Shown: in pieces, positions 7,184 through 13,631 of the stretch | How positions within the stretch are numbered: position 1 is the first letter of the stretch | How the letters are laid out: every line of letters starts with the position of its first letter | Source of the DNA: a virus | Taxonomy: Duplodnaviria > Heunggongvirae > Uroviricota > Caudoviricetes | Virus record (IMG/VR): IMGVR_UViG_2698536476_000007 | Length of the DNA stretch: 26,878 nt | Reading direction: 5' to 3' (one strand) | Translations under genes and position numbers: made by a program | The notes under the pieces: generated by a model | The model's input: the letters and a program-made list of their open reading frames with translations, nothing else | Told to the model about the DNA's origin: nothing | The model's database searches: none

Positions 7184-7435
7184 ATGTCATCTACAAAATT
7201 AGTTAAAACTATCCTTTTCCATGGAGATAATAAATATGAAGTTTATGCAACCTCCGAGTACGCTGACGTAGATAGAATCATTCATTACAAGTTACGCTCA
7301 TGTAAAAACACAGATGGTTCAGATGGCAAGTCTGAATCTATATGGGTTGTATATAATCCTGCTGTTCAACTACCGGATGATCTGAACTACAAAAAAGTTA
7401 GCAACATAGCTCCTTATCTTGAAAAGTTACAATAA
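7184..7435 (+). CDS. Hypothetical 83-aa protein; AT-rich moron with its own RBS and terminator
   Basis: AGGAG RBS 6 nt upstream of the ATG; AT-rich codon usage unlike flanking phage genes; intrinsic terminator immediately downstream. No family recognised. Confidence 0.55.
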   Translation: MSSTKLVKTILFHGDNKYEVYATSEYADVDRIIHYKLRSCKNTDGSDGKSESIWVVYNPAVQLPDDLNYKKVSNIAPYLEKLQ

Positions 7436-7457
7436 ACTTCCTTTTCCACATGCTAAA

Positions 7458-7483
7458 AGCCTCGTATTCGCGGGGCTTTTTAT
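7458..7483 (+). terminator. Intrinsic terminator after the 7184-7435 moron
   Basis: GCCTCG-tattcg-CGGGGC stem (one G-T wobble) followed by TTTTTATT. Confidence 0.55.
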
Positions 7484-7493
7484 TGTCATTACA

Positions 7494-7519
7494 AAAGCCA
7501 CTCCCTACAGAGTGGCTTT
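7494..7519. terminator. Perfect 10-bp hairpin (AAGCCACTC-cctaca-GAGTGGCTT); possible opposite-strand or bidirectional terminator partner
   Basis: Perfect inverted repeat; on the - strand the stem is followed by TTTTGTAATG. Confidence 0.3.
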
Positions 7520-7647
7520 GATAATGGTTTATACCCTACACGGGATAACTTAACTGATATCCCTTTTAACGGATAAACGGAGCCAACAATGGCAGAGAAT
7601 GTCGGCATTATGGCAGTTAAATTTGGATAAATCGGAGATTAGTACAT

Positions 7648-7998
7648 ATGCCGCCACGAATCCCGAAAGCCTGCCGTGCTCGAGGTTGCCGTAATACCAC
7701 CACTGACCCGTCAGGCTATTGCGAAAGCCACAAAAGCGAAGGCTGGAAGCAATACAAACCTGGACAATCCCGTCATCAGCGCGGCTACGGTTCGAAGTGG
7801 GACAGTATCCGCGCGCGTGTCCTGAAGCGTGACAAAGGCCTGTGTCAGTTATGTCTGCGTTCTGGTGTGGTGCGTGAGGCGAAAACTGTTGACCACATCA
7901 TCCCTAAAGCGCATGGCGGCACTGATGCTGACAGTAATCTGCAGAGTCTGTGCTGGCCGTGTCATAAGGCGAAGACGGCCCGTGAACGGTTAAAGTGA
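7648..7998 (+). CDS. HNH endonuclease (packaging-associated, upstream of terminase)
   Basis: Cys pairs (CRARGC...C) plus 'VDHIIPKAHGGTDADSNLQSLCWPCHKAK' is the HNH motif; classic HNH-cos-TerS-TerL arrangement of HK97-like phages. Confidence 0.85.
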   Translation: MPPRIPKACRARGCRNTTTDPSGYCESHKSEGWKQYKPGQSRHQRGYGSKWDSIRARVLKRDKGLCQLCLRSGVVREAKTVDHIIPKAHGGTDADSNLQSLCWPCHKAKTARERLK

Positions 7999-8018
7999 TA
8001 ATAATTCTCAACTGTCTG

Positions 8019-8086
8019 AGGGGAGGGGCGGGTCAAATCCCTGTGACCTGACGTCTTCCGGACTGCCCGCCCCATCGTTTTTTTAT
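8019..8086. other. Candidate cos/packaging-initiation region (GC-rich inverted repeat GGGGCGGG...CCCGCCCC followed by a T7 run)
   Basis: Located in the HNH-to-terminase-small intergenic gap where HK97-like phages carry cos. 8-bp perfect inverted repeat separated by 33 bp, then ATCGTTTTTTTAT. Confidence 0.3.
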
Positions 8087-8123
8087 ACCCGCGAAAAATG
8101 AAATTTAACCAGGAGTGCCGCAT

Positions 8124-8618
8124 ATGGCTGGAACGGCGGGGCGTTCCGGGCGTCGCCCCAAGCCAACGGCGCGCAAGGCGCTGGCCGGAAACCCCGGCAA
8201 GCGAGCCCTGAATAAAGATGAACCTGTTTTTACGCCCATCAAAGGTGTTGAGCCACCGGAGTGGTTCGCAGAAGAAAATCTCCCTCTCGCCACGATCATG
8301 TGGCAACTGACAACCAAAGAACTCTGCGGTCAGGGCCTGTTGTGCGTGACTGACCTCGCGGTGCTTGAGCGGTGGTGCGTGGCCTATGAGTTCTGGCGAC
8401 GTGCCGTGAAAAATATTGCCATACAGGGCAACACCATCACCGGTGCAATGGGCGGCAGGGTCAAAAATCCGGAGCTGACCGCCAAAAAAGAACAGGAGTC
8501 CGAGATGAGCAGCACGGGGGCAATGCTCGGACTCGACCCCAGCAGCCGCCAGCGTCTGATTGGCCTGGCGGGGCAGAAGAAAGCCACTAACCCGTTTCTG
8601 AAAATCATCGAGTCATGA
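8124..8618 (+). CDS. Terminase small subunit (P27 family-like)
   Basis: AGGAG RBS at 8111-8115 precedes ATG 8124; basic N-terminus and position immediately upstream of, and overlapping, the large terminase subunit. Confidence 0.8.
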
Positions 8619-10348
8619 GCCGGAAATCTTACCCCAACGTAAATGCTGCCAATCAGTATGCCCGTGATGTTGTGCGCGGAAAGATTGTGGCCTGCCAGTT
8701 TGTGATTCAGGCCTGCCAGCGCCATCTTGATGACCTGATGGCGGAAAAAAGTAAGTCGTTTCGTTACCGCTTCGACAAGGACCTGGCTGAACGGGCCGCC
8801 AAATTTATTCAGCTGTTGCCGCACACCAAGGGTGAGTGGGCATTCAAGAGGATGCCCATCACGCTGGAGCCGTGGCAGCTATTTGTGGTCTGCTGTGCGT
8901 TTGGCTGGGTCAATAAAGGGTCCCGGCTGCGCCGCTTCCGGGAGGTGTATACCGAAATCCCCCGTAAGAACGGCAAATCGGCAATCTCTGCCGGTGTTGC
9001 CCTGTATTGTTTTGCCTGTGATAACGAGTTTGGCGCGGAAGTGTATTCCGGTGCCACGACAGAGAAACAGGCGTGGGAAGTCTTTCGCCCGGCGCGACTG
9101 ATGTGTAAACGCACACCCATGCTGACGGAAGCGTTCGGGATTGAGGTTAACGCCTCAAACATTAATCGTCCGGAGGATGGCGCGCGGTTTGAACCGCTGA
9201 TCGGTAACCCCGGTGATGGTTCATCACCCCACTGTGCGGTGGTGGATGAATATCACGAGCACGCCACCGATGCGCTTTACACCACGATGCTTACCGGGAT
9301 GGGGGCGCGACGTCAGCCACTGATGTGGGCCATTACTACTGCCGGGTACAACATTGAGGGGCCGTGCTACGACAAGCGACGGGAAGTTATCGAGATGCTC
9401 AACGGGTCGGTACCCAACGATGAACTGTTCGGGATCATCTATACCGTTGACGAAGGCGATGACTGGACCGACCCGCAGGTGCTGGAAAAAGCTAACCCGA
9501 ATATTGGCGTGTCGGTTTATCGCGAATTTTTGTTAAGTCAGCAGCAGCGTGCGAAAAATAACGCCCGTCTGGCAAACGTCTTTAAAACAAAACACCTCAA
9601 TATCTGGGTGTCGGCGCGTTCGGCGTATTTCAACCTGGTGAGCTGGCAGAGCTGCGAGGATAAATCACTGACCCTTGAGCAGTTCGAGGGGCAGCCGTGC
9701 ATTCTGGCCTTTGACCTGGCGCGTAAGCTGGATATGAACAGCATGGCGCGACTTTATACCCGCGAGATTGACGGTAAAACGCATTACTACAGTGTGGCTC
9801 CGCGCTTCTGGGTACCGTATGACACGGTGTACAGCGTCGAGAAAAATGAAGATCGCCGGACAGCCGAACGCTTTCAGAAATGGGTGGAAATGGGCGTTCT
9901 GACCGTTACCGATGGTGCGGAGGTGGATTATCGCTACATCCTCGAGGAGGCCAAAGCGGCGAACAAAATCAGCCCGGTCAGTGAGTCACCCATCGACCCC
10001 TTCGGGGCGACCGGGTTGTCACATGACCTTGCTGATGAAGACCTGAATCCCGTCACTATCATTCAGAACTACACCAACATGTCCGACCCGATGAAAGAGC
10101 TGGAAGCGGCAATTGAATCGGGGCGCTTTCATCATGATGGCAATCCCATCATGACCTGGTGTATCGGCAATGTGGTCGGCAAAACCATTCCGGGTAACGA
10201 TGATGTGGTGAAACCCGTCAAAGAGCAGGCGGAAAACAAAATTGACGGTGCAGTTGCGCTGATTATGGCGGTTGGCAGAGCCATGCTGTACGAGAAAGAA
10301 GACACGCTGTCTGACCACATTGAGTCCTATGGGATCCGCTCGCTTTAA
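8615..10348 (+). CDS. Terminase large subunit
   Basis: 577 aa; size and position (ATGA overlap with the small subunit, followed by portal), with acidic/ATPase-like motifs such as '[11 protein letters not shown]'. Confidence 0.9.
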
Positions 10349-10359
10349 CTGAGGTAATT

Positions 10360-10542
10360 ATGATCATGCTGATTCTCGCGCCTCTGGTGGGCGTGCTGGG
10401 GGCGCTTTTGCTGGCGTATGGTGCCTGGCTGATTTATCCCCCGGCGGGGTTTGTTGTTGCCGGGGCGTTGTGCCTGTTCTGGTCGTGGCTGGTAGCGCGA
10501 TATCTCGATCGTACACAGCTGTCTGTTGGTGGAGGTAAATAG
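10360..10542 (+). CDS. Small hypothetical membrane protein (two predicted TM helices)
   Basis: 60 aa, almost entirely hydrophobic ([26 protein letters not shown]...[13 protein letters not shown]); wedged between terminase and portal. Confidence 0.4.
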
Positions 10543-11783
10543 TGTTCTTTTCGGGATTATTTCAACGAAAAAGTGACGCACCGGTGACCACGCCAGCAGA
10601 GCTGGCGGATGCCATCGGGTTGTCCTACGACACCTATACCGGAAAGCAGATCAGCAGTCAGCGGGCCATGCGACTGACGGCGGTTTTTTCCTGCGTCAGA
10701 GTGCTGGCAGAGTCGGTCGGGATGTTGCCCTGCAATCTGTATCACCTGAACGGCAGCCTGAAGCAGAGAGCCACCGGCGAACGTCTGCATAAACTGATCT
10801 CCACGCATCCCAATGGCTATATGACGCCGCAGGAGTTCTGGGAGCTGGTGGTCACCTGTCTGTGCCTGCGGGGAAACTTTTACGCCTACAAAGTGAAAGC
10901 ATTTGGCGAAGTGGCTGAACTGCTGCCCGTCGATCCCGGCTGTGTGGAACCGAAGCTTAACAGTAGCTGGGAGCCGATCTATCAGGTCACATTCCCGGAT
11001 GGCTCCACGGATGTACTGAGCCAGGAGGATATCTGGCATGTGCGCACGCTGACGCTGGACGGACTGGTGGGGCTGAATCCCATCGCCTATGCCCGCGAGG
11101 CAATATCGCTGGCGGCAGCGACCGAAGAGCACGGGGCCAGACTGTTCAGCAATGGCGCGGTGACGTCGGGTGTGTTGCGTACAGAGCAGACGCTGTCAGA
11201 TCAGGCTTATGAGCGCCTGAAGAAAGATTTTGAGGAGCGTCACACCGGGCTTGGCAATGCTCACCGCCCGATGATCCTTGAGATGGGGCTGGACTGGAAG
11301 TCGATGGCGCTGAACGCCGAGGACAGCCAGTTCCTGGAAACCCGCAAGTTTCAGCTTGAAGAAATCTGTCGTCTGTTCCGGGTGCCGTTGCACATGGTGC
11401 AGAACACCGATCGCGCCACCTTCAACAATATCGAAGAGCTGGGGCTGGGATTTATCAACTATTCACTGGTGCCGTATCTGACCCGCATCGAACAGCGGAT
11501 CAACACCGGACTGGTACGAAAAAGTAAGCAGGGCGTTTATTACGCCAAATTTAACGCCGGGGCGTTACTGCGCGGGGATATGAAGTCCCGTTTTGAAGCC
11601 TACGCCACCGGGATCAACTGGGGAATTTACTCTCCCAATGACTGCCGCGACCTGGAAGATATGAATCCGCGTCCCGGTGGTGATGTCTATCTCACACCGA
11701 TGAACATGACCACGAAACCCTCCGATGGCAGTAAAGCCGTTAAGCAGAAGGATAACGCCAATGCAGACGAAACAACGTCTTGA
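10542..11783 (+). CDS. Portal protein (HK97 family)
   Basis: 413 aa following the large terminase; GTG start with GGAGG RBS at 10530-10534; followed by protease and capsid. Confidence 0.85.
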   Translation: MFFSGLFQRKSDAPVTTPAELADAIGLSYDTYTGKQISSQRAMRLTAVFSCVRVLAESVGMLPCNLYHLNGSLKQRATGERLHKLISTHPNGYMTPQEFWELVVTCLCLRGNFYAYKVKAFGEVAELLPVDPGCVEPKLNSSWEPIYQVTFPDGSTDVLSQEDIWHVRTLTLDGLVGLNPIAYAREAISLAAATEEHGARLFSNGAVTSGVLRTEQTLSDQAYERLKKDFEERHTGLGNAHRPMILEMGLDWKSMALNAEDSQFLETRKFQLEEICRLFRVPLHMVQNTDRATFNNIEELGLGFINYSLVPYLTRIEQRINTGLVRKSKQGVYYAKFNAGALLRGDMKSRFEAYATGINWGIYSPNDCRDLEDMNPRPGGDVYLTPMNMTTKPSDGSKAVKQKDNANADETTS

Positions 11784-12411
11784 TGTACCGCTGAGTCTGA
11801 AATCTGTCAGTGACTCCGGTGAGTTTGAAGGGTATGGCTCCGTCTTTGGTGTAAAGGACAGCCACGATGATGTGGTGATGTCCGGGGCATTTGCTGCTTC
11901 CCTGCGGGCGTGGAGTGACAGAAAAGCGTTACCTGCGCTGCTCTGGCAGCACCGCATGGATGAACCCATCGGTGTTTACACCGAAATGAAGGAAGACGAT
12001 GTCGGGCTTTACGTCAGGGGACGGTTGCTTATTGATGATGATCCCCTCGCAAAACGCGCACATGCACACATGAAGGCCGGTTCGTTAACCGGCCTTTCTA
12101 TTGGGTACGTCCTGAAAGACTGGGAATACGACCGGAGCAAAGAAGCCTTTCTGCTGAAAGAAATCGACCTCTGGGAAGTCAGCCTGGTGACGTTCCCGTC
12201 TAACGACGAGGCGCGGATCAGCGACGTCAAGAACGCACTGGCCCGCGGGGAAATCCCCGAACAGAAAAAAATCGAAAGAGTCCTGCGTGATGTCGGACTC
12301 TCCCGTACCCAGGCCAAAGCATTCATGGCCGGGGGCTATGGCGCACTGTCCCTGCGCGACGCTGAGGATGTGGGCTCTGCACTGAATGCACTGAAAAATC
12401 TGAACTTCTAA
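11761..12411 (+). CDS. Prohead maturation protease (HK97 family)
   Basis: Position between portal and capsid, about 216 aa. AAGGA RBS precedes ATG 11761; the track's 11725 start lies deep inside the portal gene. Confidence 0.8.
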   Translation: MQTKQRLDVPLSLKSVSDSGEFEGYGSVFGVKDSHDDVVMSGAFAASLRAWSDRKALPALLWQHRMDEPIGVYTEMKEDDVGLYVRGRLLIDDDPLAKRAHAHMKAGSLTGLSIGYVLKDWEYDRSKEAFLLKEIDLWEVSLVTFPSNDEARISDVKNALARGEIPEQKKIERVLRDVGLSRTQAKAFMAGGYGALSLRDAEDVGSALNALKNLNF

Positions 12412-12425
12412 TCAGGAGAAATACG

Positions 12426-13631
12426 ATGGCGGTTGATATTAAAGATGTCGAACAGGTCGCGCAGGAGCTGCAGCAGAAGTTTGACGACTTCAAAGCAAAG
12501 AACGACAAGCGCGTGGATGCGATTGAGCAGGAAAAAGGCAAGCTTGCCGGGCAGGTGGAAACCCTGAACGGGAAACTCAGCGAGCTGGAAAATCTCAAAA
12601 GCGACCTTGAAAAAGAGCTGCTTGAGCTGAAACGTCCGGCAGGTGGTGCGCAAAATAAACTGGCCACCGAGCATAAAGAGGCGTTTGTGGGCTTCCTGCG
12701 TAAAGGCCGTGAAGACGGTCTGCGCGATCTGGAGCGTAAGGCATTGCAGGTGGGTACCGATGAAGACGGTGGCTACGCCGTGCCGGAAGAACTGGATCGC
12801 AACATTCTTAACCTGCTGAAAGATGAAGTGGTGATGCGTCAGGAAGCCACGGTGATCACCGTTGGCGGTTCCGACTACAAAAAACTGGTGAATCTGGGCG
12901 GTACGGCTTCCGGATGGGTGGGGGAAACGGATACGCGATCCCAGACTGCCACCTCCAGACTGGAGCTGATTGAACCTCTCATGGGGGAAATTTACGGCAA
13001 CCCGCAGGCTACCCAGAAAATGCTGGACGATGCCTTCTTCAACGTGGAGGCCTGGATCAACAGCGAGCTGGCAACCGAATTTGCCGAACAGGAAGAAATT
13101 GCCTTTACCTCAGGCGATGGCACCAAGAAGCCGAAAGGGTTCCTGGCGTATGAATCCACTGATGAAACCGACAAGGTCCGGGCGTTCGGCAAACTTCAGC
13201 ATATTGTATCCGGCGAAGCGACCGCGGTGACCGCAGACGCCATTATCAAACTGATTTACACGCTGCGTAAGGCACACCGCACTGGCGCGAAGTTCATGAT
13301 GAACAACAACAGCCTGTTTGCCATCCGTCTGCTGAAAGACACCGAGGGTAACTATCTGTGGCGTCCTGGGCTGGAACTGGGGCAGCCATCCTCTCTGGCG
13401 GGTTACGGTATCGCTGAAAACGAGCAGATGCCGGATATTGCCGCGGATGCGAAAGCCATTGCATTTGGTAACTTCAAACGGGGTTACACCATCGTTGACC
13501 GTATCGGTACCCGCATTCTTCGCGATCCGTACACCAATAAACCGTTTGTCGGTTTTTATACCACCAAGCGCACCGGCGGCATGCTGGTCGATTCGCAGGC
13601 CATCAAACTGCTGAAGATTGCAGCGGCGTAA
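12426..13631 (+). CDS. Major capsid protein (HK97 fold) with N-terminal coiled-coil delta/scaffold domain
   Basis: 401 aa; N-terminal 100 aa coiled-coil-like (QELQQKFDDFKAKNDKRVDAIEQEKGKLAG...); AGGAG RBS; follows the protease. Confidence 0.9.
   Translation: MAVDIKDVEQVAQELQQKFDDFKAKNDKRVDAIEQEKGKLAGQVETLNGKLSELENLKSDLEKELLELKRPAGGAQNKLATEHKEAFVGFLRKGREDGLRDLERKALQVGTDEDGGYAVPEELDRNILNLLKDEVVMRQEATVITVGGSDYKKLVNLGGTASGWVGETDTRSQTATSRLELIEPLMGEIYGNPQATQKMLDDAFFNVEAWINSELATEFAEQEEIAFTSGDGTKKPKGFLAYESTDETDKVRAFGKLQHIVSGEATAVTADAIIKLIYTLRKAHRTGAKFMMNNNSLFAIRLLKDTEGNYLWRPGLELGQPSSLAGYGIAENEQMPDIAADAKAIAFGNFKRGYTIVDRIGTRILRDPYTNKPFVGFYTTKRTGGMLVDSQAIKLLKIAAA

Follow-up and report, generated by a model that had tools for sequence, protein, structure and literature searches.

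In this prophage, the 125-nt gap that separates the genes for an HNH endonuclease and the small terminase subunit (positions 7999-8123) is very probably the cos region of a temperate phage of the SfV/SfI type, with a 10-nt cohesive end, as judged from its sequence and that of its relatives. By its genomic context, its identical cohesive end and its homologous HNH and TerL proteins, the site is assigned to the SfV/SfI cos family. The cos site of prophages of this type has already been characterised, and in that respect the finding itself is known and ordinary. All coordinates refer to the window, that is, the whole stretch of 26,878 nt that was analysed. The gap is flanked by the packaging machinery that is expected at such a site, as predicted from Pfam matches, with an HNH protein on one side and, on the other, a P27-family TerS and a TerL that carries a nuclease domain:

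7648-7998, plus strand: HNH endonuclease gene, 116 aa, Pfam PF01844 (E=1e-16), TGA stop codon at 7996-7998.
8124-8618, plus strand: small terminase subunit gene (TerS, P27 family), Pfam PF05119 Terminase_4 (E=4e-20).
8615-10348, plus strand: large terminase subunit gene (TerL) with ATPase and nuclease domains, Pfam PF03354 and PF20441.

Direct reading of the sequence agrees with the first-pass annotation on the limits of the gap, which had been set at the HNH stop (7998) and the terS start (8124). The terS gene starts with the ATG at 8124, preceded by a Shine-Dalgarno sequence (AGGAG) at 8111-8115. Pfam matches place the gap upstream of terL and of portal, S78 protease and HK97-fold capsid genes; further Pfam-assigned open reading frames downstream of terL lie at 10542-11783, 11725-12411 and 12426-13631. 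The translated HNH protein carries a zinc-ribbon motif (CxxxxC...CxxH) at its N-terminus, ahead of the HNH domain, and is 38% identical to gp74 of phage HK97 (BLASTP, E=5e-11) and 35% identical over 115 aa to the HNH nickase of Bacillus phage gamma (E=6e-17). The TerS is 98-99% identical to the TerS of SfII and SfV, and the TerL shares 28% identity with the N-terminal part of HK97 gp2 (BLASTP, E=8e-11). The annotation had started from the premise that an HNH endonuclease sits next to the terminase in HK97-like phages and is needed for cos cleavage, and published work bears it out: the HNH gene adjoins the terminase genes in such phages, and gp74 stimulates the TerL-dependent cleavage of HK97 cos (PMC9410871, PMC11331095).

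Sequence identity to relatives whose ends have been mapped shows where the cohesive end lies and what its sequence is:

8064-8073, plus strand: cohesive end TGCCCGCCCC, a 10-nt overhang that is probably 3'-protruding, identical to the SfI end.

Both termini of SfI virion DNA have been sequenced directly by run-off, revealing a 10-nt gap relative to the prophage, 5'-TGCCCGCCCC-3', from which the authors concluded that SfI uses a cos packaging mechanism, as 'postulated' for SfV (PMC3636060). An identical cos is common to SfI, SfII, SfIV and SfV (PMC3851460). When positions 7600-8700 were compared with phage genomes by megablast, SfV, SfIV, SfI and SfII matched at 97.5-98% over the part that each record covers; identity to several E. 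coli myophages was 93-97.5%. These four phages have the gene order of the window (HNH, gap, P27 TerS, TerL) and identical boxes on either side of the cohesive end, and they depart from it by one or two substitutions in the gap; over 8019-8126 there are two differences from SfI (8041 and 8074) and one from SfV. Differences from the SfI/SfV family are possible in the region upstream of the G-rich box described below and elsewhere in the prophage. The GenBank record of SfI ends at the equivalent of 8073 (...GGACTGCCCGCCCC) and restarts at 8074. The end mapped in SfI thus falls inside the interval of about 8019-8086 to which the cohesive-end site had been narrowed beforehand. What counts against this mapping is that the SfV record was opened at 8057, 7 nt upstream of the SfI-mapped end; the SfIV record opens at the same position, and that of SfII at 7999, all within the gap. 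We infer 3' polarity for the SfV/SfI lineage since both SfI run-offs show the gap (recessed template 5' ends), a reading that is our own. By analogy with SfI, HK97 and phiE125/phi644-2, virions of the present prophage would have unique ends with 10-nt 3' overhangs.

The surroundings of the cohesive end were compared in increasingly large samples. A first sample consisted of HNH-to-terS gaps from distant phages whose TerS belongs to this family (33-88% amino-acid identity). A scan of species-dereplicated bacterial genomes with a four-sequence TerS alignment then gave 80 loci, from Enterobacterales, Pseudomonas, Comamonas, Caballeronia and Burkholderia, and the window, these 80 loci and five phage loci were reduced to 63 representatives (<85% identity). 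When anchored on a single motif, the 85 unique sequences stack without gaps. The anchor was the motif CCGCGAAA, and its exact occurrence in 62 of the 63 representatives is therefore an inflated count; the flanking columns (ACC, AAATT) are independent of it. A separate polymorphism profile was built from 78 near-identical relatives (99-100%) found by a TerS-protein search of viral contigs. Among the representatives, the conserved columns are 8020-8037, 8060-8067, 8079-8086, 8087-8097 and 8101-8105, and between the boxes the sequence is free while the length is fixed. The elements are, from upstream to downstream:

8020-8037, plus strand: G-box GGGGAGGGGCGGGTCAAA, conserved, containing the left arm of an inverted repeat.
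8038-8059, no strand: spacer from the G-box to the nick motif, of low information content and fixed length.
8062-8065, plus strand: ACTG, an instance of AC(C/T)G, at the junction of duplex and overhang, in register in relatives.
8078-8084, plus strand: run of seven T within a conserved T-tract (+5 to +11 from the cut), of high information content.
8087-8105, plus strand: ACCCGCGAAAAATGAAATT box, predicted TerS binding site (+14 to +32 from the cut), the most conserved element.

In the information profile of the 63 representatives, the first element appears as a G-rich box followed by TC(A/G)AA (8020-8037), and in 53 of the 63, G occupies at least 10 of the 13 positions 8020-8032. The second is GGAC(C/T)GCC at 8060-8067, strongest at A8062, C8063 and G8065, with AC[CT]G exactly in register in 53/63. 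At least five T within 8078-8086 are found in 59/63, and downstream of this tract come a near-invariant ACCCGCGAAA at 8087-8097 and AAATT at 8101-8105. The distance from the G-box to ACYG is 29-30 bp in 42 of the 45 loci in which it could be scored; in the window the G-box lies 30 bp upstream of the proposed bottom-strand nick, about three helical turns away. Polymorphism among the 78 near-identical relatives is found mostly upstream of the G-box and in the spacer, which varies even at this close range, and 8060-8126 is almost invariant. Searches of the 26.9-kb window, which does not include the remainder of the prophage, gave a single occurrence of the G-box pattern and a single one of the TerS-box pattern. 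Located on the packaged (right-end) side of the cut, the G-box has the position of a cosQ and is predicted to act as a conserved cos subsite.

The conserved boxes also account for the pattern that had first been described in the gap, a GC-rich inverted repeat followed by a run of seven T. The pattern itself is present, with GGGGAGGGGCGGG at 8020-8032, CCCGCCCC at 8066-8073 and ATCGTTTTTTTAT at 8074-8086, in which the T7 run occupies 8078-8084. A perfect 8-bp inverted repeat, GGGGCGGG/CCCGCCCC (8025-8032 and 8066-8073), has 33 nt between its arms, and its right arm is included in the cohesive end. The first-pass annotation was thus right about the pattern, while the repeat does not stand as a functional unit, its complementarity being lost in relatives, and the T7 run belongs to the conserved T-tract at +5 to +11 rather than to the tail of a terminator. 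A perfect inverted repeat of at least 8 bp occurs in 8.9% of 2000 dinucleotide-preserving shuffles of the gap and in 47 of 446 real 125-nt windows of this sequence. Within loci, the mean longest match between the arms is 4.84 bp, compared with 4.88 bp in permuted pairings (P = 0.69, 63 representatives), and the 8-bp complement of the window is the maximum in this set, in which 4-5 bp is typical. Since the arms are conserved separately and do not covary within loci, the complementarity is incidental, and the inverted repeat is a by-product of two separately conserved boxes, not itself a signal. As the repeat is within chance expectation, the significance of the feature rests on the comparative and experimental evidence instead.

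Two readings give the repeat a function of its own. According to the first, it would be a recognition element that defines cos, as a hairpin, a cruciform or half-sites for a dimeric protein. Both arms do lie inside conserved boxes, and in many loci there is a loose complementarity between the G-box and the C-rich cohesive end (GG.GGGTC / GAC..CC), but pairing within loci does not exceed that of permuted loci, the window has the largest complement of all 63 representatives, a repeat of this length arises by chance in about 9% of shuffles, and the DNA fold of the gap (z = -1.55) is matched by 17 of 200 shuffles. With both the shuffle test and the test of within- versus between-locus complementarity negative, the repeat was rejected as a selected feature, and we consider a recognition role of this kind highly unlikely. 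According to the second reading, the repeat and T7 would form a Rho-independent terminator that ends the lysis/HNH transcript ahead of the terminase operon. An 8-bp G+C stem does lie 4 nt upstream of T7, and the predicted RNA structure pairs the arms. The loop of 33 nt is nevertheless far from the 3-8 nt of a terminator, the T-run begins only after four intervening bases (ATCG), where a U-run directly behind the stem would be expected, and the RNA fold is not stable above background, being no stabler than that of shuffled sequences (z = -0.75). A terminator scan called nothing in the gap, yet recognised a canonical hairpin at 7455-7480, and the pairing of the stem is not kept in relatives, yet the T-tract is kept in 59/63. 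On the scan and the folds the terminator was rejected, and such a function is extremely improbable. A structured RNA was likewise rejected: an Rfam scan of 7400-8300 gave no match in the gap and none of relevance, only a chance miRNA match outside the gap at 21.8 bits, against a gathering score of 100.

The annotation had proposed a comparison with the cos sequences of HK97-like phages, and when this was carried out the mapped ends of HK97 and phiE125/phi644-2 came to lie at the place that corresponds to the SfI-type end. HK97 has a 10-nt 3' overhang (PMC9410871), and its record ends ...GGGCAGGGGGGGGGATCAAATC-N-GAC|CGCCGCCAAA. Following the G-run, (A/G)TCAAATC begins exactly 42 nt before the right end of HK97, as it does in the window (8032-8073). 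Like the window, HK97 has the HNH gene upstream and terS downstream of cos, homologous HNH and TerL proteins, an AC|CG junction, a GC-rich overhang of 10 nt, and CCCG with an A/T-tract about 15-30 bp downstream of the cut. Unlike the window, it is without the ACCCGCGAAA box, the distance from the HNH gene to cos is about 320 nt instead of about 65, and gp74 is without the N-terminal zinc ribbon (PMC3592412).

The HK97 system also suggests a role for the most conserved box. HK97 TerS binds 15 bp at +15 to +29 downstream of the cut, where it reads a G and the A-tract next to it; the motor is stalled with cos placed in the TerL nuclease (PMC11331095). The same interval of the window, CCCGCGAAAAATGAA, falls within the most conserved box and resembles the HK97 site, CTAACCCGATTTTTT, in its type of composition. 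The window TerS has no BLASTP similarity to HK97 gp1, which is without a Pfam match, or to the TerS of Bacillus phage gamma; because the proteins show no detectable similarity, the analogy with the HK97 TerS site is one of position, not of homology. From its position and conservation, 8087-8105 is probably the TerS site.

A closer match to the TerS is found in Burkholderia phages. The DNA of phi644-2 and phiE125 ends in 3' extensions of ten bases, the right end reading 5'-CGCCCGCTTC-3' (PMC2920897), and in one Burkholderia locus of the stack (L174) CGCCCGCTTC fills columns 8064-8073, directly after GAC. phiE125, phi1026b and phi644-2 share with the window a P27-family TerS (about 50% identity) and an adjacent HNH gene, and have the G-box, the GAC|CG junction, the T-tract and a CCCGCGAAAT box in the same columns. 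They differ in the sequence of the overhang, in a G-box offset of 1 nt, in being siphoviruses and in having a host from a different phylum class. A further comparison concerns Bacillus phages gamma and Wbeta. The cos of gamma is annotated in GenBank, where the record ends ...GGGTAGGGGCGGGTCGAAAAAC-N-GTAC|CGCCGCCCC. A G-box (GGGTAGGGGCGGGTCGAAA), the distance from G-box to AC and a TAC|CG junction are common to these phages and the window, and the gamma HNH nickase, N.phiGamma, shares the zinc ribbon of the window HNH protein along with 35% identity. The differences are a 9-nt overhang, the lack of a CCGCGAAA box and the Gram-positive host. The overhang of the gamma-like phage Fah is 3'-extended according to a review (PMC4113786), in conflict with newer Wbeta/gamma-type isolates, for which PhageTerm gives a 5' overhang (PMC8878798). 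In HK97 and gamma alike, the distance from G-box to cut is that of the window.

The cos of phage lambda (cosQ-cosN-cosB) has 12-nt 5' overhangs, Nu1 R-sites and an IHF site, and no HNH protein is involved. Its cosN is partly two-fold symmetric, and both strands are cut by gpA. The window resembles lambda in its tripartite logic, with an upstream element on the packaged side, a nick site, and a downstream site for the small terminase beside the terminase genes. In contrast to lambda, the window has an adjoining HNH gene, an overhang of 10 nt that appears to be 3', and an asymmetric cosN, direct reading revealing no dyad symmetry around 8064-8073. A lambda-type cos is therefore not what the gap contains.

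The asymmetry of cosN fits the action of two different nucleases, and the identity of the junction suggests which strand each of them may cut. In a biochemical study, the purified terminase-adjacent HNH enzymes of phage gamma and relatives nicked DNA strand-specifically at CG|GT (AC^CG), with CA|GT as a star site (PMC3592412). For a 3' overhang at 8064-8073, the bottom-strand junction is 5'-...GGGGCGGGCA|GTCC-3', which is CA|GT in the window; CG|GT occupies the equivalent junction in most relatives and in HK97, phiE125 and gamma. In the 63 representatives AC(C/T)G is the best-conserved part of cosN, and the top-strand cut site at 8073/8074 is poorly conserved. In the mechanism that we propose, the P27-family TerS would bind the ACCCGCGAAAAATGAAATT box and position TerL, as HK97 TerS bound at +15 to +29 does. 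The adjacent HNH protein would then nick the bottom strand at CA|GT, and TerL would nick the top strand 10 nt downstream. The resulting cuts in concatemeric DNA, at 8073/8074 in the top strand and 8063/8064 in the bottom strand, would leave 10-nt 3' overhangs, and packaging would run to the right, so that terS, terL and the head genes are the first to enter.

The bottom-strand nick is given to the HNH protein because the sequence at which HNH enzymes have been shown to nick matches the junction motif, and this division of labour, with TerL as the top-strand nickase, is somewhat favoured by analogy. It has to be weighed against the behaviour of other HNH proteins in vitro, where HK97 gp74, which lacks the zinc ribbon of the specific nickases, is reported as a non-specific nuclease (PMC3592412) and the lactococcal HrdP of phage sk1 shows no specificity (PMC12967558). 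These same observations favour a scheme in which TerL makes both nicks, the HNH protein is only an allosteric or structural stimulator, and AC(C/T)G is a determinant for TerL or TerS. gp74 would then be what it was reported to be, a stimulator of TerL-dependent cleavage with no specificity of its own (PMC9410871, PMC3592412), and the structural study of HK97, which left the strand division between TerL and gp74 open, includes the alternative that TerL cuts one strand, translocates and cuts the second (PMC11331095). Cleavage by TerL alone is nevertheless rather unlikely in our judgement, though to be taken seriously: homologous HNH nickases linked to terminases have a measured nick specificity identical to the junction motif, it is the motif and not the top-strand cut site that is well conserved in cosN, and the window HNH protein has the zinc-ribbon architecture of the specific gamma enzyme together with 35% identity to it.

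The conservation of G-box and junction spans SfV-like phages, HK97, and phages of Pseudomonas and Burkholderia as well as Bacillus phage gamma. It is conceivable, though we hold it only tentatively, that HNH-dependent cos sites from Proteobacteria to Firmicutes share one fixed architecture, with a G-box 29-30 bp upstream of the junction AC(C/T)G, a motif that coincides with the CG|GT specificity of the HNH nickases, and this may serve as a testable lead only. The G-box seems to track the HNH/TerL pair, since it is present with dissimilar TerS proteins (HK97, gamma) and absent upstream of terS in three Firmicute phages (L178-L180) with a P27 TerS and no adjacent HNH gene, a small sample that is only suggestive. 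If the architecture is general, HNH would make the bottom-strand nick and TerL the top-strand nick, which lies 9-10 nt farther downstream and is weakly conserved. This would answer why HNH-dependent phages need a second nuclease, and the G-box would be a cosQ-like subsite that goes with the HNH/TerL pair rather than with the TerS family. The rigid spacing of G-box, AC(C/T)G and TerS box across phyla offers a concrete test of the strand assignment in HNH-dependent packaging, which recent papers still treat as open (PMC11331095; PMC12967558). Neither the cross-phylum architecture nor the coincidence of junction and HNH specificity was found in the searchable literature, whose reach excludes key subscription papers, and literal searches with the G-box, TerS-box and overhang sequences returned no phage paper beyond those cited here, which is weak evidence that the architecture has not been described.

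For the annotation of this prophage, the comparison provides an exact cos coordinate, with the sticky end at 8064-8073 and base 1 of the left end at 8074. Such a coordinate helps to predict virion chromosomes, cos-mediated transduction and hijacking by satellites, and the same locus is present in 1183 of 5426 complete E. coli genomes. Many prophages are cryptic, the window holds no proof of inducibility, and prophages of this kind are found in 22% of complete E. coli genomes; the present one might accordingly be a relic, either defective or packaging by headful, in which the sequence no longer serves as cos. This is very unlikely, as the HNH, TerS, TerL, portal, protease and capsid open reading frames are all intact and give full-length matches to Pfam, the 78 close relatives show no variation in the cos boxes while neighbouring non-coding positions vary, and SfI, SfII, SfIV and SfV, which have the same cos, are viable phages.

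A further element lies at the upstream edge of the gap:

7996-8010, no strand: Fur-box-like palindrome TGATAATAATTCTCA (7-1-7), overlapping the HNH stop codon, a facultative upstream element.

The palindrome has 13/14 matches to TGATAATnATTATCA, and its equivalent in HK97 is TGAGAATGAATCGCA. At a similar offset, at least 10/14 palindrome matches occur in 21 of the 63 representative loci, as against 1.4% of control segments.

The window comes from a temperate, SfV-like myophage and represents its late region, with genes in the order lysis, HNH endonuclease, cos, terminase, HK97-type head module and contractile tail. Among 5426 complete E. coli genomes, 1183 carry the segment running from the HNH gene through cos to the small-subunit terminase gene (terS), and in most of them the identity is 95-99%. 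Three further features lie in and around this segment:

7455-7480, strong hairpin resembling a terminator, with a stem of 11 bp, a loop of 4 nt and a T-run, directly after the ORF at 7184-7435
7996-8010, palindrome TGATAATAATTCTCA, in overlap with the stop codon of the HNH gene
8154-8160, further copy of the hexamer GGGGCG/CGCCCC

The hairpin is placed between the ORFs of the lysis region and the HNH gene. The palindrome matches the 7-1-7 Fur-box consensus TGATAATnATTATCA at 13 of 14 positions, and TGAGAATnATTCTCA-like palindromes occur 15-30 nt upstream of the G-box, the G-rich conserved cos box, in about one-third of the 63 diverged loci vs 1.4% of control segments. HK97 carries a similar palindrome, TGAGAATGAATCGCA. 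The element at 7996-8010 could be a site for a host factor or a phage protein and form part of cos.

The hexamer is present in four copies of alternating orientation within 8025-8160 (8025, 8068, 8137 and 8154), and the cohesive end and the first terS codons share a 12-nt inverted match (8068-8079 and 8132-8143, 83%). This recurrence may merely reflect the Gly/Arg-rich N-terminus of TerS.

Several relatives depart from the layout of the window. In the region equivalent to 8050-8075, three loci of a Pseudomonas subgroup of the phage D14E type (L091, L138 and L139) have GACGGGGGGA in the overhang columns and GACCG ~9 nt further upstream, with both the G-box and the CCCGCGAAA box retained, and this subgroup may be cut at a variant position or have an overhang of another length. 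The loci from Xenorhabdus, Photorhabdus, Providencia and Morganella (L113-L135) contain ~70 nt extra, with the consensus ...TTTCACTGTTTTTGAGCACGGGAGGTGCTG..., between the TerS box, the predicted TerS site, and the terS start codon, whereas only 18 nt separate the two in the window. In Vibrio phage Her (L090), whose TerS is 49% identical, only ~6 nt lie between the HNH stop codon and the start of terS, leaving no room for an intergenic cos region, and cos must be located elsewhere in this lineage.

For the Wbetavirus cohesive end, CGCCGCCCC, the polarity given in the literature is conflicting: that of phage Fah is described as 3'-extended (PMC4113786), whereas PhageTerm assigned a 5' overhang to J5a, F16Ba and z1a (PMC8878798). 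The GenBank record of Bacillus phage gamma (L176/L177) includes the overhang at both ends.
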